33,412 nt of DNA from Vermamoeba vermiformis (Eukaryota): the NCBI GenBank assembly GCA_045837725.1, contig JBEWZL010000300.1, positions 558,001 through 591,412 on the forward strand, written 5' to 3'. Made by a program: the position numbers and the translations under genes. This document shows positions 1,281 through 19,164 of the stretch, piece after piece (position 1 is the stretch's first letter; each line of letters starts with the position of its first letter). The notes under the pieces were generated by a model. The model made no database searches. It saw nothing but the letters and a program-made list of their open reading frames with translations, and was not told where the DNA came from.

Positions 1281-4200
1281 ATGGAGCGACTAGAGGAACA
1301 ATTTTCGACCATCTTTCAAGATTTGTGCTTGATGGTCAATTTGGTGACTGAGTTCTTCGAGGAGCTCGTGCGAGATTCAGAAGATGTTACTTCACAATAT
1401 AATCAAGCGAAGAATAATATATTGGCTCAACTTGCCGACATCAAAAAAGTTTTTAGGATGCAGCCCAACCCTGACTTAAAACGGGCTGGAAAAACGGTAA
1501 GCAATATTTTATAATATTTATAATAATATTTTAAGCAAAATCTCGACGGTAACTCTTGCATAAAGTACGCAAGATTTTTTGAATCCTACCGTTGTACCCG
1601 ACAAAATTTTATCGTGAACTCGAGCACTAATATGACCAATACATCTATATTAATATTCTATTTCGTATTAAATCACAAAGTCTCGTTTCGGGCTTTTTTC
1701 TTGTTAGATTTACTTCACCAGCAATTCTAATGAAGCTGTATTACCTCACAATATTCTACGGTAAATCTAATATTACAATATTATATTTAGTTCGTTTCGA
1801 ATGTAGAAGCTTTCGTGCAGAATATTCAAGAGCATTTAGATCTGATCGACATCCCTACCGACTTTACCTCTTCGACTATGAACCAGTATTTAACATCTAT
1901 CGATATATCCATTAAAAATTGCGTGTCTCTTATTAGTGGACGAGGCGTAAGTATCTATTTAAAGGAGATCTCGGATCGCAACCTTGCGTAATCTTTTTGA
2001 CTTTAGTTAATTATTTTTTTAGAAATAACTCTATAATTATAATTTTTTATTAATATATTTCTCTTTTCAAATGATAGAGAAAGCTAGATTTTGAAGAAGA
2101 AGATTTGTACGAGATCCCGAATTACAGCCAAGTCGATGAAGAGGTCGAAAATGTTATTAGGGACCTATTACAAGATGCAAAAGAAATGACTAACACGCAG
2201 TTCACGTACAATTTTGACGCGCTCAACGAAATGATCGAAAATTCAGCGCAAATGATCGACATTACACTGGGCGATATCATAGCCAATCAGCCCTCGAGCG
2301 TGAATTCTCATTCAAACAATTCGAGCAACGGGTCACTTCCGACAAGCAACTCGGCATCACTGTTACAAGTGCCTGGTGTCAGTTCACCAACGAGTTTAAG
2401 TACCGCCAGCAACGGGGCCTCGAGTGCGCCCAGCACAGCTAACAATAGCGCCCAATCCTCGCCACAATTAGAGCGTGGTAGGAGTCAAGTGCAACTAGCA
2501 CAAAGGAGGTCTATTCCTAATTTACCACCGATCGATGCGATTATGAATCAACAAGGCGGATCTAGCACGAACCCCGTGCTGTCCCCGACATCAAATAATA
2601 ACGGAATGTCGCCAAAAATAGCAACACCGACGAGTCGAAGTCAGAGTCCAGGTAAGTTAACCATTACTAAATTTAGTAAGTCCTAACAATACCGCAGAAC
2701 CATCACTGCGGAGGTCGGTAGATAAACCTCCTTTGAGCAAAGTTCCATCGGTCCAAAAAGATTTAGCGAGTAGTCCTAAAACACCAAAAAGCGGCAATCC
2801 AGTCGTGACCACGACCAAACAACCGATCAAAATGGACAACGCGGCCATTCAGATCATGCGCAAGAAAGCACTCGATGAAGTTTTAAAATCCGAGTCTGAA
2901 TATGTAATATACTTAATTTTGGTTAACCAAGTAAGTACATTAGGCATCGATTATTATATAATGCTTATTATTATTTCTTTATTTAGAACTATTTACAACC
3001 GCTGAAGCAAGCTGCAGCAACGAAAAGAATTCCTATCACGGAAAAAGACGTCGCAGCATTGTTTTCATGCTTTGAAAGCGTTTGTAAATTTCACCAGAGC
3101 TTTTTGAAAGCACTCGAAATCAATTTTGCCAAGCACGCAACACCCGGTGAAGTGTTCAAGAAAATGGCGCCGATGATGAAAGTATACACGGGGTATATTG
3201 CGGATCAAGTACGAAGCACGGAGACTTTGCGGAAGTTTAGACGAAACACGAAAATTTCAAATTTCTTGGACGAATGCAAAGAAAAATCTGGTCAAGCGAA
3301 AGATTTGGAGGACCTACTTGACTTGCCTTATCAACGGCTCAATGTTTACGAAAATTTATTACAAGTACGTAGTTTAATTAAGCTCGGGACCTATTATTAA
3401 CGCCATACTATAGTCATTGATAAGTCTGACTGCTAAAGACCATCCTGATTACAAAACACTCGAGGAAGCGCAAAATGTCATTCACAGTGTCAACCAAGAA
3501 ATTCAAGAAAAAAATCGAGAACGAGAAGATCGAGGCAAAATTCTCGAGATCTCTAATAAGATCACGGGCATGCCTCCTCGCGTGGTACGTTGGAGCGAGT
3601 CTAAAAATAGCATTAGTATTTATTCCATATCAGGCACTTGTTGCTCCTCATCGCGTGTTTTTTAAAGAAGGCCAGTTGGAAATGAAACAATCTGATTGGA
3701 AGAAACAACGAGCCTCGTCATTCTTTGTATTTTTATTTAACGACATGGTATTAGTAACAAAAAAGCCAAGTAAGTACCGGATCTACTGCGCTTTGTACTG
3801 GATCTGATCGAACAATTTTTAGGCAAATTATCAACGTCAAGGAGGTTTGCAGTAGAAGCTATAATCAACTTACACGAGACACACTTGGACCATGGCGAAG
3901 AAGGTAATAATATATAATAGCACTAGTTCAAAAAAATTTTGAGATCCGATCGAGTACGGAAGCGGCGGAGTTTTGTGGTAGTATGGCAAGTAGTGACCCG
4001 AACACGATGCTGCAGTCGCTCATTTTTTCATTTTAATACCGCGCTGCTCTCGCAGCCCGTGGGTGAAATTTATTTAATGTCTAGCAATACAATATTACAT
4101 ATATCGACTTTCAACGCGCCCAGTTTGTTGTACTCCGCGTCGAAGCGAGCTCTGGCAGTACTAACGTACTGCGAGAGGGCTATTGGGTTTTCGCGGATGG

Positions 4201-6070
4201 CTTTGCGGGTCGCGTGAGCGATGCGTTGGCTGAGTATTGCGGACAGCGTGTTTGATATAGCCTTGGTGTAGTCGGATCGGATTTCGTCTGATGAGGGTCC
4301 TTCGTCAAAATGAAGCTTATAGATCGCGCGGCGGGTGAGCCAAAGTCTTGTTGATACGAGGATGAGGTCTAGGCCCGAGAAGTTGAGCGGGAGTATGTCG
4401 CTGGGCCTCCAATTGATGGGAGTCGTGGTGAGCTGACGATCGATGGCTGAACAGACTACGCTGACTTGAGATGCCGTAAAGCACTCAAACATCAGGTGGC
4501 AGTGAGTAATCTTCGTCTTGTGGTAGTTGCATTGCTCGTGGTGTTTGGGAGCATAGAAGTCCCGATGAAAGAAGCGGAACACGGCTGAGCGTTGATGACT
4601 CTTAGCGGGAGTGGTCGCGAGCTTGCCCCAGATGGTCGCCCAGTCGCAGCCATAGGAAGAGGTCCATTCCTGCTGGCCTGGTGTGGGGGCAAATTCGAGC
4701 GACTTGAGGAAGGGCCCGTAGATCTCCTTGAGTCTAGGGTAGTTGCCTGTGGTCACGGGGGCGTGCTTGGTGATCAGTGAGTACGAGGCAACTGAGTACT
4801 TCACAACATCAAAGTAAATGTGTTCGGCTTGGTAGTGGGCCAGCCACGGAGGCGAGTACAAGTCCTGGGGGTGCTGCTTAAGCGCCCTAATGTGAAGAGA
4901 GGCTAGTTGAGCCGGGCAGTCGCTCTCGGGCACGACCACACTAACAAGAATGCACCGCTTCCCGTCCGATCAGCGAAGTTAAGCTTGTTCAGGCCTTCTT
5001 AGTACTGGGGTAGGAGACTACCTGGGAATCGGAGGTGTTGTGCTCTTTACTTTTTGCTTTTAAACTTGCTGCTTCTCGCATTACACTTCTTTTTTGCAGC
5101 ATATATATTTTTTATGCTGGCTTATTGCAGTTTATTTTAGCTGATCCAAGTTTTCAAGATTGGCGAACCTATTTTTGTTTGATACTATTAGAACTTGCCT
5201 ACTACTAGACTAGTTTCTAACGTTTTTTTTTGTTTAGATCGCGTGGCGTTCTCGCTGTACGTGAGCAAAAAAGACATCTCGTACACGTTCTACGCTGAGG
5301 ACTACAACAAAAAAATGGAGTGGTTTGACACGATTGAGAAGTGCTTGCAAGGCTTGAAGAATGCACGATCAAAGTAAGTACAGTACAGTATAGTGTGCTC
5401 GGTTTGAAATTGTTGGGACTTTTTTTTCTTGCGGTGGATGTGCTAACAAGTCGAACAGGACGTTGGACAACAAAGGTGACGAAACAACAGCCACTAAACT
5501 TAAAATTAATCTGGTTGCCGGCAAGAACATGCTGCCTTCCTTATATGGTAAGTCAAACCGACGACAACTTTGAAAGTAGCTCGCACATCTAACTCTTCGG
5601 ATCTAGATCGAGCACACCTTGTAGTTATATTTAGAGTCGGTGAAAACGTGCTCGAAAGCAAAGTGAAGACAGCCAATGATATTTATGTCTGCAATCCGCT
5701 GTGGGACGAAGAATTCGTGATTGAAGTGTCGGATCCAAGCTCGGACATGTTGCGTGTCACAGTCAAAGATACGAGTTCAGATCGTATATTAGGCAAGACT
5801 AAGATCGTGTTATCCGATCTATATGAATACGTGCCTTCAGAGAAGTGGTACACATTGAAAGAAGCTGTCAATATTGAACGACCAGGCGAGATCTGTTTGG
5901 GTACGTAAATTCACTGGATCTGCTCGTAGAATTATAGGGCTAACAGTGCTTGCTTAGGCTTGACATTAGGAGAAGGTTTTCAATCAGCACAACCTGCGCC
6001 GCTAAAGTCTAGAGCGTCAGCGGTAAATATGGCCCAAAACAACAGAAAAATTAAAGCGAAAGACAAGTAA
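1281..6070 (+). CDS. RhoGEF with DH, PH and C-terminal C2 domains and a Ser/Asn-rich N-terminal linker; multi-exon
   Basis: DH motifs (RKKALDEVLKSESEYV; LLDLPYQRLNVYENLLQ; TAKDHPDYKTLEEA), PH motifs (RVFFKEG; FLFNDMVLVTK; YAEDYNKKMEWFDTI) and C2 motifs (NPLWDEEF; VTVKD...ILGKTKI). The last exon ends ...KAKDK-TAA at 6070. Exon boundaries between about 1500 and 2080 are less certain. Confidence 0.88.
4012..4021. repeat. Left copy of the 10-bp target-site duplication GCAGTCGCTC
   Basis: Exact match to 4916-4925; directly abuts the element's A-rich tail. Confidence 0.88.
4022..4915 (-). mobile_element. 5'-truncated non-LTR retrotransposon (L1/Tx1/TRE-like ORF2 C-terminus, 3' UTR and A-rich tail)
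   Basis: Open frame to TAA at 4070 containing W..IW.KL....K...R...FRFFH...CNYH......H.HLMFEC..A, a zf-RVT/CCHC-like C-terminal region of L1-clade ORF2. Visibly more GC-rich than the intron flanks. Short 3' UTR ends in TAAAATGAAAAAAT. Flanked by the direct repeat GCAGTCGCTC. The RT and endonuclease domains are absent. Confidence 0.82.
4916..4925. repeat. Right copy of the 10-bp target-site duplication GCAGTCGCTC (positions -12 to -3 of the 5S gene)
   Basis: Exact match to 4012-4021; the bases on either side differ between the two copies. Confidence 0.88.
4928..5046 (+). rRNA. 5S ribosomal RNA gene (119 nt, full length)
   Basis: GGGCACGACCACAC...CCCGTCCGATCAGCGAAGTTAAGC...GGCC...TTAGTACTGGGGTAGGAGACTACCTGGGAATC...GTGTTGTGCTCT. 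The 5' GGGCACGAC pairs with the 3' GTTGTGCTC (helix I). Box A-like AGTTAAGC and box C-like GGAGACTACCTGGGAA are present. Confidence 0.95.
5046..5055 (+). terminator. Pol III oligo(T) terminator of the 5S gene
   Basis: TTTACTTTTT immediately after helix I. Confidence 0.75.
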
Positions 6071-6141
6071 CGAAGAAAATATGCGCTTGTATTCGTAGTA
6101 TTAAAACTTATTTATTCTATTGACATAAGAGGTCTATAGTA

Positions 6142-9100
6142 TTAATAATCGTAAAAGAACGGACTAACACGCTGTTCATTAACGCGCTTGAAAAAGTCGC
6201 AGTAGCGTGATGTAGACCCCTGCAAGACTTCCAAATTTGGAAAACGCCTCACGAAGATCGGTTCGCAAGCTGAGATCAATGAGTATATGAATAGCATATA
6301 ATCAATACAAGCACTTACCGTCAGTGACCGTAAAAGCGTAATCAATCACCAAATACTTCAAATTCGGACAGCATTCAGCCAGATAGAATATCGGCCAATC
6401 GCTTTGGGTTTGCAGACCACTTGATGACAAGTTTCTTATCTTCGTCAAACCTGTGTGAACCACCATTCGGCTACAAGATCCGTTAGACTCAGTTATGCTA
6501 GCGTGTGCACGTGACTTACTTCCAACTTTCTTCCTGCGAGCATGGTGCGTACAAGTACAAGTCGGTCAAGTCTGTGCACTTTTCTAAAATCAGCCCGAAG
6601 TCAATCTGTTTGTGGACTACAGGCGGTGGTGGAGGTGCTGGTGCCGGGTTGTTATTGACTTGTTGTTCTTGATTGTTCGCCGGTGGTGCATTTTGAGCAT
6701 TATTGTTCGCGTCGTTATTGTTATTCTGGCCTTCTTGTGCTGCATTGTTGTCGCCAGGCTGTTGAGCGCCATTATTATTATTGTTTTGCGCTGCTTGGTT
6801 GTTGTTATTTTGAACTTGATTGTTGTTGTTTTGAGCTTGATTGTTGTTATTCTGCGCTTGATTGTTATTGTTCTGTTGTTGCTGATTTGCTGGATTTTCT
6901 TCATCAGAAACAACAAACAGATCTAAATCTTGAATCTTCTTGCAGTGTTCGAGAATGGTGTAGGCGTCCGAAATGGTAATCTACGAATAGCCACATTAGG
7001 TCGTGATCGTTACTAACGGTATTATTATTATTCATCCTTACCCTAGAAAGTTCCAATTTGACGAGGTTAACGCACCGCACGAGAGGTGAGTAATTGACGT
7101 AAAAATTCCTCTGTTGGTCCCGGCCTAATCAATTAAAGTTAACAATGCATACGAAGAGTTAATCCATATCAATTGGTCCTTACTGTGCAAGGCACGCAAT
7201 GTCGTGCCTAACTGAGCAATGCCTTGCACAATAGCGTTGGTCACAGGCTTAACGTCCAACTTTAATTTTTGAAGCTTAGTGCAGTGCGAGGTCACCGTAT
7301 GGAGGAACTGATCGGACCCTGCAATGAGCATCGTTAGATTTTGTTCACAGATTGATTTTAATCGTACCATCGGTAAGATCACCGGACTTCACAATTGCAA
7401 AATTGGTCAAGTTGGTGCACGAAGAAATGCCGAAATAAGGTCCGTTAAAGCCTATTTCGCCTGTGTGCAATACTTTCAACGACCGCAAGTTCTTGCAGTA
7501 GTCGCCAATGTAATCGTGAATGTCTCGGTCAAAGTTACTGATCTCGCTGCCTTCAAGTTTGAAGCTTTCAAAAGTTCCAAATCGCTTGAACAGCTCGTCA
7601 TATTCAGCATTGGATAGCCGTCCAAAGAGCCATTCGCCTTCCAACTTGACTTTGCGCAGCTTAGGACACGCGTCAAATATGCCGTACAGCATCTTCTTGA
7701 GCACTAACGACGTGACATTCTCGTTCTCATTGGAGTGATATAACTGCACCGAAGTGAGATTCGGACAGCGCTTGAATACGCCAACAATGAGGTCGGAAAT
7801 GAGGTCGTGTTGCACGTCCTCAGGGAATCCAACGTCGATCGTTAGATGTTGCAATGATGTGCTGCCCGACTGCATCACGGAGTCGAGGTCAACCATCCAC
7901 TTGCGCGGGTCAGGTTTCTTGACCTGTTTGACTTTCTTCTTCTTCCAAGGCTTCTTTGGGTTAGCAGGGGCAGGCTGAGGTTGTTCGGGGTTCAATTCTC
8001 CGTCTTTGACTGCTTGGACTTTAGCTCGCTTCCAAGGAATGATGCGGTAGACCCTCAGTGACGTCAAATTCGTGTTTTTCTGGAACACTCCTCCGAGCCA
8101 CGAGACGGGATGGTCTCGATAAATGTTATAAATGTCAAGTTCTTTCAAGCTAGTGCACAAGCGCGGAATATCAAAGGTGGAATTGTAGATCTCGTCACTC
8201 ACGTTGCACGTTTCCACTTTAAACTTCTCTATCATGTGCATTTTATGCGCGATATCGGCGAAGAAGGAAGGCTTGTCCTGATGACGTTCCCACATGCGCC
8301 AAGTGATTGACACGACCAGTTCACTCCACAACAACTTCTGCTTGTCCACGATCATTTGAATGCTCTTGGACGTGGCTGCGAAATGGCGCAAGTCCCGTTT
8401 GTTCAGCTTGATGAGAATCAAGTTGATCAGCTCGCTTAAGAGAGGCAGTCGCTCAATCAAGCCAATCCTCTTTCGCTCGTGGTCGTCAAGCTCTTGACTG
8501 GACACTGGTTGGCCACGCTTTTGCAATCGTTCTTTACGTTCTTGCTTAACATGGCCTTTGGATTTGAGATGTGCTTGTAAGCTAAATACGCATTAGTAAA
8601 GAATTCACGGAGCTACATTGATTCAAGGGACATACCTCACAGCAGAAGTGAACTTCTTGTCGCACAACAAGCACTCGAATTCTTTCTTATTTGGTGAAGC
8701 GTGCTCGGGAGGCTTAACGGCATCGTCAGAACTTGTTTTCAGCGATAAAATGGGCTCCTGTTCTTCAACTGTTGTATAGTCTCCATTGTGCCCTACAAGT
8801 GCAATTAGGCGAGCTTGACCTTCGCGACGATCGTTTAATTATATATACCTTGCGCTTCACGCTCGTGCAACTCATTAATGTAAGCCAGTTGCTCTTTGGT
8901 CAAGTTTTCTTGACTAGCTCCAGCATCCAACAAGACTCGAATGATTTTATCGCGTGAGAACTTATCGGCTGCTAAAAATTCTTCGCGGTACTTGCAGTCA
9001 CTATTGAACGAGGTAAGTCCGATTATCGAGTCTTGTATTCCTCAAGCCACTGCTACTTACTCAGACAAGATGATTTGCAGCAGCGTCAAATTGTTCGGTC

Positions 9101-14942: not shown

Positions 14943-17659
14943 TTATTTTTCGGTGATCTCAGACGAAGAAGCGGAAGCAGCAGGCTTATCAGCGGGGTCG
15001 TTCTTCTTTTGCTTCAAGTACTCGTTCTCGGTTCTGAGCTTGTCGATCTCCTTGCGCAACTCGTTGAGCTCGTTCTCCAACTTCGATGAGTTTTCAGAGA
15101 GGGAGCTTTGAGGATGCGAGTGGGAGCTTGTCATAGCAGTGGTGTTCTTGTTGGTACCCCAAGCAGTACCATCATCACCGTCCTTCTTCAGCTTGGCCAT
15201 CAAGTGGATCTTGTTACCAAAGACAACGATGATAGTAGTCATGTTGGCCACAAAGATACCAATGCTGCGGATGATGAAACGTTCTTGACGGCTAATGGTG
15301 CTAACGAACTGCAATGCGGTGATGAGAGCAGAGATGATAACCAAGACGTAGATAACGAAGGCCAAGAGACGAGACTCGTTGTAGACCTTGTGAGGAACAG
15401 AACGGATGCGAACGGCCAAGTAGATACCGTAGCCCATCAGAATAGCGTTGTATCCCAAGGCAATGATAACGAAGGCGAAAGAGACCGGAGTAGCAGCCAT
15501 ATCAACGCTGCAGTCGGTGTACCAGAGAGCAGGGCGGTAGGGATCAGTCACGACAAGTTGCACGTCACTACCGAAGATTGCAATGATGATGCAGATGACA
15601 GCTTCAATACCGACGACCACTGCAGTAATGATGGAGAGCTTGGCGTCAGTAATAGCCTTGATGGTGAGGCGCTTGTCGTTGTACAAAGAGTGGATTCGCC
15701 ATGACTTAGCGAAGAGGCAACCAAAAGTGATGGTGAAGCCAATACCCAACAAGAGAGGAGTCAAGACGCAAGCAGCCTTGTCCAACCAGCTCAAGTTCCA
15801 GCTGAAGATGCTAGCATAAGACATGCAAGTACCGAACAGGACGTAAACCAAGAACAAAGCAGATGAGGCGCGGATAATCTTGTTCTTGCGGTTAGCAATG
15901 ACAACGATCATGAGGGCGATCGAGAAGACAATGCCAACAATAGCGAGAGCGAACATGGCCCACTCAGAAGGAGTGGTCGTAGGGTTGTAGATGCGCTCTG
16001 ACCAGGTGGGCATAGGGTAAACCAAGTTTTGCTAAATAGGATAATTAGAATGTGTTTCCTGCGTTTATAATATCAAAGGGATTCCACAAAATAATCGTTG
16101 GCCCTTTTTTGGACAGCACCTCACGAGATTTCAGCATAAAAATTGATATTATTTTTGTCAATTTACTGAAACGAGTGGCAGCTTGAATATACTGAGCTAA
16201 CAAGCAGCTTTGCCACGGCGGAGTATCAAATCATCACATAAGGTTATAATTTAAATTTGCAGGAATTGTTCCGGGTCGCGAAGATCCGCCGACCAAAATC
16301 GAATCAAATAATTAATGCTGATTTAAAATCACGTTTCATGTTGCTCAAATCGATATAATTTGCCTTGATTTAAAAGTTTTTAGGTATTGCTAAACTTACG
16401 AGCTGAACTCTGCTGGGACCAACGACGTTTACAACGCTAGTGTAGTTGGCAATTTCCTTACGGGCGTACTGAATCCATTCATCGCTGTTGGGGACGAACT
16501 GCAAGAAGGGAACGAAGCGAAGTTGCGAGTGATCTGCGCCGAACTGGTAAGGACCGAAGAAAGTGTCTACGTTAACTCGTCCCAAGGCACGTGTCACCTC
16601 GTTGTTGTCCAAACTATCAGCAGACTGGATGGCAAGCATGAGAAGCAAACCAGAGACGGCACCGATGGCTTGGTTAGCGTCAGCAGGACCAAGAGAAGCA
16701 TCCATGGTAGCGTCGAAAGCAGTAAGAAAATCCTTGTACGTGCCGAAGTAGTCACCTCTAAAATTAATACCAGGGGCAATGACGTCGCAGCCACTGACGA
16801 AGGCAACCAAAGAAGGGTCGAGAGCAAGGAAATCCGGAACGTAGTACGAGCTGATGTAGACAGCTTTAGGAGTGTAGTCCAACTTTCTGATGGCCTCCAA
16901 GAAGTAGCGACCGACGTTAGTGAAGCTAGCAATGACGACGGCGTCGAAAGTGTGCTCGTTAGTTCCATTTTGGTGATCAATGTCGCGGATGAGGGAAGCG
17001 ACATCCGAAATGTTTTTAATAAACGTATCATCAATGCCATTGAGAGTATCAGTAATTACGTTGTATTGAGCAACGATTTCGATGCTATAATCGTCGGCAT
17101 TTGAAACAAAACCTTTTCCAATGTCAATCTGGAAAGGTGTTTGTTCCACAACCAAAACAATCTTTCTAATGTTGTTAATTCGGAACTCCGGGAACGTAGT
17201 AGTAGCATATCGAGGAGGGGATGTTGTTACGGAGTAAGAGTATTCGGCACCAGTGTAGAATGAAGCCGATCCGACTTTGGTACCAAGAAGTAAGCGACCA
17301 GCGGGTTCTGTGATGGACTTGGCAGCTGAGCTGAGAGGAGAGCTCACGGGACCCAAGAAGAAGTTGATTTCGGAATCGTTAAGCATGGTTCGATAGTTTT
17401 GCTTGACGATCGTCGCGTTTCCATAATCTTCCATGTGCTTAATTGCAAAAGTTAAGCTTTCGTTCTTGTTGATTGTAATGTTCCAAGTGTTGGCTTTCTG
17501 AACGAAGAATTGAAGGCCGGCTAGAATTTGTTTGCCGTTCTGGTTGAGAAAGGAGGACGGCGCTTGAGTAGAAACGCTGATGCCAAAAGTGACCTGCGTC
17601 GAGTAGTAACCATAGAAGCAGCTCAAGAAGAGCAAGGCTGCAATTAAAACCTTGGCCAT
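14943..17659 (-). CDS. Class C (GABA-B-like / Dictyostelium Grl-like) GPCR; exons 17659-16400 and 16031-14943
   Basis: Signal peptide (MAKVLIAALLFLSCFYG), periplasmic-binding-type ectodomain (FFLGPVSS; VDTFFGPYQF), 7TM_3 motifs (IIRASSALFL, FGCLFAKSWRI, YNESRLLAF) and a C-terminal coiled coil. One 368-nt phase-0 intron. Confidence 0.92.
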
Positions 17660-17997: not shown

Positions 17998-19164
17998 ATG
18001 GCCACAAATCAATTTGGTGGTGTATATTTCCCTGGGGCTTGTTACGATCAGTTACTCCGTATTCGAATACTGCAAGATTTGATTAGTCTTCAACCAAATC
18101 ATGGTGCAAAGAGTGAGCTCGCAAGAAAATACAGTGTTTCACCAGCGTATATATCAAAGTTAAATAATCTATTTGTGGAATATTTGACCGATCCTTCTGG
18201 AGAAAAAGCACGCAATCTACTTTTTTCTCGCTCGCACTGTAGGTTCATTAATTAAATTGGTAAATAATATTATAATTAACGCCTATATATCTAGCACACA
18301 TCCGTGAGTCACGTAAGCTGGATATTGAGAGCATTCTGTATATTTTACTGCTTGTTGAACAAAATCCGACCATCTACCTTTGGGAACTACAATTAATGCT
18401 TTATGCTCATCTCAATATCGAAGTATCAATGGAGACCATTCGAAAGACTATGATAGAGATCGGACTAACACATAAGAAAGTGTCAAGAGTGCATCTCCGC
18501 AGATTTACTCCCCGAAACATACAATGGCGACGAGTTTATTCGGAACTGATTAGCCAAGCAAACGTTGATAGATTATTTTATTTTGACGAATGTGGTTTTG
18601 CAAGGCGTGACACACAGCGAAATTATGGTTGGAGCGCATCTCGTCGTTGTGTAGCAATTGATGACTGGACGAGACTACCAGCGATTCAACTACTCGCATT
18701 AATGGGCAAGAATGGTGTGCAAGCGATTCAGCTCCTATCTGGTACAGTAACAAGCCTGCACATCTGCAACTACTTTCTTGTGCACGTGTTCCCGTTCTTA
18801 CCTCAAGGCTCTGTCATCGTGATGGACAATGCATCGATTCATCGTGGTGCAACATCGCAGTTCCTTGCCGACTTGCTGCAATTAAAGGACTCTGTTTTAA
18901 TTTTTTTGCCACCGTACTCGTAAGTCTACTTGAGTCTTTAAATTTGTTGTGCAAGCCACCAAAATACTAATAATATTTCTACCCTACAGACCTGACCTAA
19001 ACCCAATTGAAAATATGTTCGGGACGCTGAAATGCTTTATTAAAGATCAGCGATGTACAACAAACGAAGATCTGCTTGACAGCATTTTTCGTGGGATTGA
19101 TCTTATTACTCCAGAACATTGCACGAGCTGGTTCGTGCACTGTGGTATTGTTACTCCACAATAG
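17998..19164 (+). CDS. DDE transposase (DDE_3-type, DD37E), 3 exons; introns 18239-18294 and 18920-18989
   Basis: Paired-domain-like N-terminus (NQFGGVYFPG), PTIYLWEL, and catalytic YFDECGF, VMDNASIH and LPPYSPDLNPIE. There are 37 residues between the second D and the E after splicing, and no stops or frameshifts. Confidence 0.93.

Follow-up and report, generated by a model that had tools for sequence, protein, structure and literature searches.

The window analysed here, a stretch of 33,412 nucleotides of Vermamoeba vermiformis DNA, raises the question of how a fragment of a LINE came to lie directly in front of a 5S rRNA gene, and whether its position reflects targeting of genes transcribed by RNA polymerase III (Pol III). 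Retrotransposons drawn to Pol III genes provide the textbook example of 'safe-harbour' integration in compact genomes and also serve as a model of how insertion can be tethered and programmed; to our knowledge, the LINEs for which such homing has been documented to date are those of dictyostelid social amoebae. The initial annotation had proposed a LINE that targets 5S/Pol III start sites. The features on which the analysis rests are collected in Table 1.

Table 1. Features of the interrupted 5S locus (positions in the window)
Feature	Position	Strand	Basis
Conserved upstream block of the 5S unit, holding GTAGTGACCCGAACAC at 3990-4005	3988-4011	+	Contig depth, loose ends, joins
Left TSD copy, GCAGTCGCTC	4012-4021	.	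Adjoins element 3′ end; 100% identical pair
5′-truncated non-autonomous APE+RT LINE copy	4022-4915	-	tblastn with P0002 residues 845-1125
3′UTR, 48 nt, ending ...ATGAAAAAAT	4022-4069	-	Aligned with locus L001
ORF2 C-terminus, 281 codons (P0001, 281 aa), with conserved Cys/His cluster	4073-4915	-	Reading frame 4915->4073
Right TSD copy, GCAGTCGCTC	4916-4925	.	-12 to -3 of 5S gene; adjoins truncated 5′ end
Intact 5S rRNA gene	4928-5046	+	Rfam RF00001, 104.7 bits, model positions 1-120 of 120
T5 run just 3′ of the 5S gene	5051-5055	+	Read from sequence

The 894-bp insert, which the initial annotation had recognised as a 5′-truncated LINE fragment on the minus strand, is an L1-like element of the APE type. 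ORF1, the endonuclease and the reverse transcriptase (RT) are all missing from it, and what remains is the last 281 codons of ORF2, closed by a TAA stop codon at 4070-4072. Likeness to LINE ORF2 C-termini, on which that reading had been made to depend, was found: by tblastn, P0001 was 99.6% identical to residues 845-1125 of P0002, the match beginning at base 4915, and it was also 99.6% identical to the C-terminus of P0256, these residues being the last 281 of APE- and RT-bearing proteins of 1125 aa. When searched alone, the 281-aa fragment gave no Pfam match; it carries a Cys/His cluster whose residues C973, H976, H982, H984 and C989 were invariant in the three proteins aligned. The 3′UTR contains a hairpin with a GNRA loop at ∼4040-4059 (-13.9 kcal/mol, z -2.6). 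The same stem is present in the related locus L001 (z -2.35), with a GUAA loop where the window copy has GAGA, and the conserved 3′UTR common to both stops a few bases before 4022.

The hallmarks of target-primed reverse transcription (TPRT) were all present, namely a 10-bp target-site duplication (TSD), truncation at ORF2 codon 845 and an A-rich 3′ end with a very short tail. By itself the GCAGTCGCTC repeat is unremarkable, since it was one of seven repeat families of 9 nt or longer in a 1.4-kb scan; it counts through its position, because both ends of the element are abutted exactly. The perfect repeats described in the initial annotation were confirmed, and the right copy, read directly from the sequence where that annotation had placed it, ends two bases before the start of the 5S gene. 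The element and the gene are head-to-head, with 12 bp between the element 5′ end and the gene.

A single contig of the source sample bridged both junctions (3992-4945), so the insertion is not an assembly chimera. The empty allele whose sequence had been predicted was also sought. Runs X1 and X2 each yielded two contigs that ran past 4021 directly into the first 5S bases, and this uninterrupted target matches the predicted empty site exactly. The insertion is recent, and some of the chromosome copies probably lack it. Among the contigs of the source sample, one covered the interior of the element, at single-copy depth (266.8), while 5S upstream regions without the element were present in at least 31. 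The 5S genes of this sample are plainly not saturated by the element, and their colonisation by it was not supported. No active master element was seen in the source sample, and no second copy was present in the 33-kb window.

The 5S gene scored well above the RF00001 gathering score (38), and its sequence was identical in an independent metagenome contig (4924-5061, 0 differences). The T5 run that follows it is presumably the Pol III terminator, judging by what is generally known of Pol III termination. In the source sample, the summed contig depth over 5S was 124,000-168,000, compared with about 400 in the flanks, a summed depth not being a copy number. The block upstream of the insertion also belongs to the 5S unit: summed contig depth reached 6130 in the 3936-4052 bin, against 376 in the flanks, loose contig ends started at 3986-3988, and at least 31 contigs in X1, among the 14 joints listed, ran from 4005-4015 straight to 4923-4926. 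This block, a putative promoter element, was shifted 904 bp from the gene by the insertion. The claim that the 5S gene had been left intact therefore holds for the coding region but not for what lies upstream. One 5S copy thus carries a recent, probably still-segregating LINE insertion that severs its conserved upstream block.

The organisation of the family was taken from its longer members. The full-length relatives P0002 (PF03372, 2.7e-6; PF00078, 1.4e-33) and P0004 (PF03372, 1.9e-7; PF00078, 3.7e-32) both showed RVT_1 and Exo_endo_phos as their only Pfam matches at E<=0.1, with no RNase H family and no PF13966 match; the best match among solved structures (PDB) was human LINE-1 ORF2p (5.9e-57). 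At locus L001, an ORF1 of 294 aa (683-1567), which gave no Pfam match above threshold, is followed by an ORF2 open over 1130 codons (1561-4953) with no internal stop, in the -1 frame relative to ORF1 and overlapping it by 7 nt. The family is widespread in water and soil metagenomes and, judging by its intact ORFs and by copies that are 99.97% identical, is active-looking.

The closest named relatives of its polymerase were those of dictyostelid LINEs, with RT domain identities of 39-44% (Heterostelium album, 44%; D. discoideum, 43%; also Acytostelium and D. citrinum). In an RT tree of 50 hand-picked rows, 18 of them dictyostelid, the family formed a lineage of its own (support 100/100) within a clade (100/98) containing all 18 dictyostelid rows, and outside both of the subclades that contain dictyostelids (100/99 and 95/81); the D. 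discoideum rows of this tree were not labelled as TRE5 or TRE3. The zf-RVT-bearing L1/Tx1-like rows fell in the other clade.

To learn where other copies had inserted, as the initial annotation had advised, the flanks of related elements were mapped. Thirty-five LINE loci were found in metagenomes, two of them close relatives (71% and 75% identity; L001 and L002, both retrieved with 5′ flanks) and 33 distant ones. L001 and L002 were 99.97% identical over 3071 bp and shared the same first base; since their flanks are unrelated, they are independent insertions. At L002 the element 5′ end is 18 bp away from a tRNA-Phe gene carried by the opposite strand, and at L001 a tRNA-Ala gene lies head-to-head at 60 bp, with a tRNA-Met gene further out. 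Head-to-head placement at a Pol III gene was therefore found in three of three insertions (5S, tRNA-Phe and tRNA-Ala), all within 60 bp, of which two are unbiased cases, the window copy having been chosen for its 5S neighbour. In contrast, none of the 33 distant loci (120,638 bp) contained a tRNA gene or any Rfam match at gathering level. The distances of 12, 18 and 60 bp reveal no single preferred position, and the bases beside the three 5′ junctions show no resemblance to one another. No clean duplication was definable at L001, and the L002 copy is missing its 3′ end. With both close relatives beside tRNA genes rather than scattered, and no Pol III gene at the distant loci, the targets of the family appear to be Pol III genes at large rather than 5S start sites. 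Of the initial proposal, the association with Pol III genes, in the same orientation, was retained; a 5S-specific or start-site-precise system was not supported.

The insert is, in our judgement, probably a dead-on-arrival copy of a two-ORF, APE-type LINE whose family prefers sites just upstream of Pol III genes, in head-to-head orientation. The endonuclease would nick the sense strand of the 5S gene at -3/-2, exposing a 3′-OH from which reverse transcription would be primed; the second strand would be cut 10 bp further upstream, and reverse transcription, or joining of the 5′ end, would abort at ORF2 codon 845. The position of the nick, already put forward in the initial annotation, is the one that standard TPRT geometry predicts, and is upheld as such rather than as a measurement. 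By analogy with what has been proposed for TRE5-A ORF1, the site would be chosen by a pre-integration complex tethered to the Pol III initiation complex (TFIIIB/TFIIIC), and not by sequence recognition on the part of the endonuclease.

A similar distribution could be produced by selection after near-random insertion, if copies survived only where they did no harm, for instance within the short spacers before multicopy Pol III genes. The window is gene-dense, with ORFs throughout, and distances of 12, 18 and 60 bp among n=3 insertions are more in keeping with a loose constraint than with a precise tether. However, all three copies are oriented alike, none is more than 60 bp from the 5′ end of its Pol III gene, and intergenic space far exceeds such spots; the insertion in the window, which parts a conserved block from its gene, is not obviously harmless. 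Selection would also have had little time to act, since identity is high (99.97% between L001 and L002, 99.6% between the window copy and full-length ORF2s) and the window insertion is apparently not yet fixed. We consider this explanation unlikely.

Less probable still is simple coincidence, in which an untargeted L1-like LINE happened to land next to a 5S gene, there being several hundred of these, and its relatives came by their tRNA neighbours fortuitously. Many 5S targets were indeed available, as the summed contig depth over 5S far above that of the flanks indicates. Nevertheless, two independent relatives lie head-to-head within 60 bp of tRNA genes when none of the 33 distant loci has a Pol III gene, and a rough estimate, in which Pol III genes are taken to occur once every 10-30 kb, puts such an event at ∼1e-3 per copy; the window has one in 33 kb.

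Equally doubtful is a sequence-specific endonuclease, in the style of Tx1/Mutsu, R1 or R2, that would read a motif upstream of Pol III genes. The candidate is a block containing CCGAACAC, which occurs at -26 to -19 of the window 5S gene and at -20 to -13 of the tRNA-Ala gene in L001, with 126 of 5000 shuffles scoring at least as well (p ∼0.025, weak for an 8-mer). The three junctions are nevertheless unrelated, the element separates CCGAACAC from the gene in the window but lies beyond it in L001, and no motif of this type was found upstream of the tRNA-Met gene in L001. The nick site in the window, GCTC^TCGG, is not of the T-rich L1 type. Finally, a LINE specialised for 5S genes and placed at the start site with Ty3-like precision, as first proposed from a duplication at -12 to -3 and a nick expected at -3/-2, is very improbable, since the two flanked relatives lie 18 and 60 bp from tRNA genes (12 bp here) and neither is at 5S, with at least 31 5S contigs free of the element, its interior at single-copy depth and no second copy in 33 kb.

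Among known systems, the family most resembles the TRE5 elements (TRE5-A/B/C, formerly DRE), L1-type LINEs of Dictyostelium. Both have two ORFs, of which ORF2 lies in the -1 frame and encodes APE, RT and a Cys/His-rich C-terminus; both also have a short A-rich tail, a strict head-to-head orientation, and tRNA as well as 5S genes as targets. TRE5-A is reported to insert strictly head-to-head, ∼47 bp before tRNA genes and 37-42 bp before 5S (PMC5391098), and integration windows of 40-54 bp (tRNA) and 37-42 bp (5S) are given for TRE5 (PMC5391098, PMC5911963), whereas the three distances recorded here lie outside these windows. According to a review, ORF2 of TRE5-A and TRE3-A requires a -1 frameshift (PMC5911963); ORF2 of P0002 possesses its own ATG, so such a shift is not needed in every subfamily here. 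The TRE5-A 5′UTR is modular (A/B-module), while that of the present family is 17 nt long; in the RT tree the present family is a lineage outside the dictyostelid-containing subclades, with at most 44% RT identity, and the TRE5 5S target lies on the extrachromosomal rDNA palindrome, rather than being a chromosomal 5S copy amid protein-coding genes. The TRE5 ORF1 protein binds TFIIIB subunits and integration needs TFIIIC (B box), features that the present family might share by analogy.

Mutsu, a Tx1-type zebrafish element, is likewise a LINE tied to 5S rRNA genes (PMC5340908, PMC3706591). Sequence-specific LINEs of multicopy RNA genes such as this one go into a defined sequence within the gene itself, but here insertion was upstream, the 5S coding region was untouched, the relatives lie at tRNA genes and the junction sequences are unrelated. 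Yeast Ty3, which is described as integrating at Pol III transcription start sites in dependence on TFIIIB (PMC5911963), resembles the window insertion in lying a few bases from a Pol III start; it is, however, an LTR element that uses an integrase and so follows another integration chemistry, and the relatives of the family are not at start sites. Similar in position to the window copy, with its nick expected at -3/-2, is Dp_NLTR-A of Dictyostelium purpureum, reported to insert 2-6 bp upstream of tRNA genes (PMC5006619). That survey describes NLTR-A as only distant kin of the TREs; Dp_NLTR-A and Pp_NLTR-B, with RNase H downstream of the RT, are set apart from P0002 and P0004. With TRE5-A at 5S genes and Dp_NLTR-A before tRNA genes already published (PMC5391098, PMC5006619), the initial suggestion that this could be an undescribed kind of system was not supported. 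Since its relatives sit likewise before tRNA genes, the window element belongs with the known Pol III-homing retrotransposons; the family is a new member of the Pol III-targeting LINEs, one that resembles TRE5 in its orientation and targets, though not in how far from the gene it inserts.

Taken by itself, the window carries a modest practical message. The wider interest lies in the TRE lineage, whose origin, like that of its targeting, is called undetermined in a 2016 survey (PMC5006619); published work considers the origin of the lineage open because TRE-like elements were not found in Physarum, Acanthamoeba or Protostelium. It is conceivable, if improbable, that the family is a deep, non-dictyostelid branch of the TREs that reads the pre-initiation complexes of both 5S and tRNA genes and can nick inside the TFIIIB-covered region at the start site. 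Were this so, it would differ from TRE5 in nicking right at the start site and, with its 17-nt 5′UTR, its transcription may depend on the upstream region of the Pol III gene, in which case the target would be safe harbour and promoter donor at once. In any case, as a separate lineage related to dictyostelid LINE polymerases, the family can serve as an outgroup for asking when Pol III targeting arose, which part of the protein carries it, and why integration distances differ.

The 894-bp insert (4022-4915, minus strand) beside the 5S gene lies in a GC-rich kilobase directly upstream of that gene (GC 0.533, versus ∼0.40-0.42 in the kilobases on both sides), which contains a long minus-strand frame. 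Its translation from 4915 to 4073 on the minus strand, P0001, comprises 281 residues and gave no Pfam match on its own. A search for longer proteins rendered three matches among 958 candidates: P0001 shared 99.6% identity with residues 845-1125 of the 1125-aa protein P0002, and 77% and 61% with the further family proteins P0003 and P0004, respectively. In both P0002 and P0004, Pfam identified an N-terminal Exo_endo_phos domain (PF03372) and a central RVT_1 domain (PF00078), and a C-terminal Cys/His cluster was invariant in all three proteins aligned. The top solved-structure match of P0002 was human LINE-1 ORF2p (5.9e-57, residues 102-810), with R2 proteins ranking next (∼1e-28). Because P0001 matches the C-terminus of a protein bearing both APE and RT domains, the insert is the 3′-terminal part of an APE-type LINE and lacks ORF1, the endonuclease and the RT. 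A second copy in the 33.4-kb window was found neither by blastn nor by tblastn with six LINE proteins.

The sequence GCAGTCGCTC is present at both 4012-4021 and 4916-4925, forming a 10-bp direct repeat. A 10-mer repeat is not rare by itself, the same scan giving 7 families of at least 9 nt in 1.4 kb; this one matters because its copies adjoin the element at either end. Homology to P0002 begins at base 4915, directly beside the right copy, while the 3′UTR shared with L001 (a metagenome locus holding a close relative), which ends in ...GGTATTAAAATGAAA, stops a few bases short of 4022. The right copy corresponds to positions -12 to -3 of the 5S gene. In the public runs X1 and X2, which are probably from the source sample, a single contig extends across both junctions (3992-4945), confirming the element, the duplication and the placement at the 5S gene described in the initial annotation. 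The empty site that had been predicted there was present too, in two contigs from X1 and two from X2 that continue from 4021 straight into the opening bases of the 5S gene. These could alternatively have come from a 5S paralogue whose spacer is identical. The depth of the filled contig was 266.8, below the 376-424 of its flanks; allele pairs elsewhere in the stretch showed depths of 263/176 and 298/160, and that of a variant contig immediately to the left of the element was 144.9. From these depths we infer a recent insertion carried by a portion, about two thirds, of the chromosome copies. By the standard geometry of target-primed reverse transcription, the nick in the + strand (5S sense) would fall between -3 and -2 and that in the opposite strand 10 bp farther upstream.

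Over window positions 3000-6500, the allelic contig pairs of X1/X2 stood near 2:1 in depth (263/176, 298/160 and 267/145), a ratio that suggests polyploidy or a mixed culture. In the water metagenome X5, the flanking coding sequence (3008-3591) carried 50 differences to the window over 584 bases, most of them falling at every third position, whereas pieces of the element (window 4026-4917) carried only 2 over 184 bases and 1 over 227. The element is either far younger than the split of the X5 and window strains or has moved between them; the element parts left uncovered in X5 and in X6, another public run, carry no information on absence.

The sequence just left of the element (3988-4011) is itself repeated and belongs to the 5S unit, with a summed contig depth of 6130 in that bin and loose contig ends beginning at 3986-3988. 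At least 31 X1 contigs join 4005-4015 to 4923-4926 (14 joint rows listed of 18), with 5-16 differing letters in between and the same length as the empty site of the window. Because 3988-4011 is repeated and so many contigs join it to the 5S gene, the 5S genes here have a conserved block, GTAGTGACCCGAACAC, lying about 20-40 bp upstream; the insertion displaced it 904 bp from the 5S gene. The 5S coding sequence is intact, and identical to that in a contig of an independent aquifer metagenome. The summed depth over the 5S body (124,000-168,000) indicates high multiplicity, although the tool itself cautions against reading it as a copy number. The unit (3988-4011, 4924-5061) seems to have sharp borders ∼40 bp upstream and ∼10-15 bp downstream of the gene, and the 5S genes share the conserved block and, after it, a spacer that varies but keeps a fixed length. 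The loose ends of source-sample contigs at 5S units lead into many different flanks; the 5S genes of this organism seem to be a dispersed multicopy family.

To find relatives, metagenome contigs were scanned with an alignment of P0002-P0004, which yielded 35 loci. Two were close, L001 (71% identity, full length) and L002 (75%, on a contig that ends in the RT); the remaining 33 were distant (21-43%). L001 and L002 are 99.97% identical over 3071 bp. Since they come from different data sets, their similarity begins at one shared base (L001:666, L002:2503) and their flanks are unrelated, they represent two independent full-length insertions. Each faces a tRNA gene head-to-head. By contrast, none of the 33 distant loci, used as a control (120,638 bp), contained a tRNA (ARAGORN) or an Rfam match at gathering level. 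Including the window copy, all three insertions whose 5′-flank is known share one orientation and lie upstream of a Pol III gene; without it, as it was noticed through its 5S neighbour, the count is 2 of 2. By a rough estimate, such a placement would arise by chance at ∼1e-3 per copy. The element's 5′-end lies 12 bp from the gene in the window, 18 bp in L002 and 60 bp in L001. The initial annotation had proposed a LINE that targets the start sites of Pol III genes: the association with these genes held, head-to-head in all three cases, but the single precise position did not. The three junction sequences are mutually unrelated and the nick site in the window is not T-rich, which together argue for a putative tethering mechanism rather than sequence recognition. 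About 25 further copies are known from the family protein clusters, the flanks having been read for three insertions; protein-pattern and 3′UTR DNA-pattern scans of genome_contigs and viral_contigs returned no additional copies.

Features of the window and of the two metagenome loci with close relatives of the element
Feature	Sequence	Coordinates	Strand	Details
5S rRNA gene, full-length	window	4928-5046	+	Rfam, 104.7 bits (gathering score 38)
Class-3 GPCR gene	window	14946-17659	-	periplasmic-binding/ANF-receptor-type ligand domain 16373-17659; 7tm_3 14946-16031
tRNA-Phe(GAA)	L002	2412-2484	opposite to element	18 bp from first base of element, head-to-head
tRNA-Ala(AGC)	L001	531-605	opposite to element	60 bp from element, head-to-head; tRNA-Met further out
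5′UTR	L001			17 nt
ORF1	L001	683-1567		294 aa
ORF2	L001	open 1561-4953		1130 codons, no internal stop; -1 frame, 7-nt overlap with ORF1
3′UTR	L001			about 45 nt; conserved hairpin

No target-site duplication could be defined in L001; an A-rich candidate (AAAGAACAAAAAACTT / ...A14CTT) was rejected, as the locus has many chance repeats that are just as good. An 8-mer, CCGAACAC, occurs at window 4000-4007 (-26 to -19 of the 5S gene) and at L001 618-625 (-20 to -13 of tRNA-Ala), on the sense strand of the gene in both places (shuffle p ∼0.025). It may represent an upstream Pol III element that both genes share, or a chance match, and as an exact 8-mer alone at this p value it was dropped as evidence of a common motif.

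The full-length copy in L001 revealed the layout of the family. Its ORF1 had no Pfam family above cut-off, the only matches being weak, of coiled-coil type and at the C-terminus. Its ORF2 was 100% identical to the family protein P0262 and 99.8% identical to P0004. At L001 1555-1575, ORF2 starts without a nearby ATG, whereas the P0002 subfamily has one at the matching position; the translation of ORF2 may differ between subfamilies. The loop of the 3′UTR hairpin is GAGA in the window (z -2.6) and GUAA in L001 (z -2.35), both of the GNRA type. Past the conserved 3′-end of the element, L001 has 31 extra bases followed by an A14 run and then ordinary flank (4998-5050), which may reflect 3′ transduction or a longer tail in the L001 subfamily. 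The P0004 cluster counts 10 members, spread over 18 contigs, and the P0003 cluster 5 members, while P0256 is a second full-length member beside P0002. In X1, the interior of the element lies under one contig only. The family is multicopy and turns up in several data sets, and it looks active.

The relationships of the RT were examined by a word-indexed search, of which the best 120 of 891 matches at E ≤ 1e-10 were listed. Among these, the family proteins P0002-P0005 ranked first and environmental proteins (∼45%) second, followed by the named relatives Heterostelium album PPL_10798 (44%) and D. discoideum DDB_G0274837 (43%), by Acytostelium subglobosum, D. citrinum and many more D. discoideum entries (39-43%) and, after the dictyostelids, by L1/Tx1-like proteins with a zf-RVT domain (31-36%). 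An exhaustive representative search (97,835 matches at E ≤ 0.001; 3,456 at 1e-30) returned no further cluster exceeding 40% across the full length. A maximum-likelihood RT tree was built from 50 rows hand-picked by similarity to the query (4 family, 20 environmental, 18 dictyostelid and 8 zf-RVT/RNase H-bearing); curated reference LINE clades are absent from it, and the database names of its dictyostelid rows do not separate TRE5 from TRE3. One clade (100/98) united the family with 17 of the environmental and all 18 dictyostelid rows, leaving the other 11 rows outside. Inside it the family is a lineage of its own (100/100), nested in neither of the two dictyostelid-containing subclades (100/99 and 95/81); the tree does not settle the order of the lineages.

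In the 33.4-kb window as a whole, the 5S rRNA gene was the only ncRNA gene detected by Rfam, and ARAGORN found no tRNA genes. A second mobile element is represented by a Tc1/mariner-type transposase fragment at 18276-18920 (+; DDE_3 2.3e-10, HTH_Tnp_Tc3_2 4.2e-5). The nearest match of the class-3 GPCR was a 774-aa protein (73% identity). The window also codes for Asn/Gln-rich stretches and a Ras-like GTPase, for which a PDB search gave human KRas-type matches only.

LINEs that target Pol III genes have been published. TRE5-A is described as inserting ∼47 bp upstream of tRNA genes, its 5′-end always facing that of the gene, with an ORF1 that binds TBP in vitro and a requirement for a functional B box (PMC5391098); Dp_NLTR-A, an RNase H-bearing LINE, inserts 2-6 bp upstream of tRNA genes (PMC5006619), and a review tabulates integration windows along with the APE-RT-ZF layout and -1 frameshift of TRE5-A and TRE3-A (PMC5911963). 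The system described here, initially put forward as a possible undescribed safe harbour, is in light of those accounts of a known kind. One survey roots the behaviour of TRE5 and TRE3 deep in the dictyostelids and reports no TRE-like elements in Physarum, Acanthamoeba or Protostelium, hence leaving the origin of the lineage open (PMC5006619); another source reports that the non-LTR RTs of Protostelium are only fragmented (PMC5804921). The literature searched, which included few subscription journals, contained no description of this LINE family or of a TRE-like element outside the dictyostelids. The family resembles TRE5 in orientation, target spectrum and architecture, but differs from it in distance to the gene (n = 3 insertions); the RT tree, in which its lineage is nested in neither dictyostelid-containing subclade, assigns it to no named clade. 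What is new is the family itself and its separate phylogenetic position, together with a short 5′UTR and a natural insertion that lies two bases from the start of a chromosomal 5S gene. The family of the window element is a new member among the LINEs that target Pol III genes.
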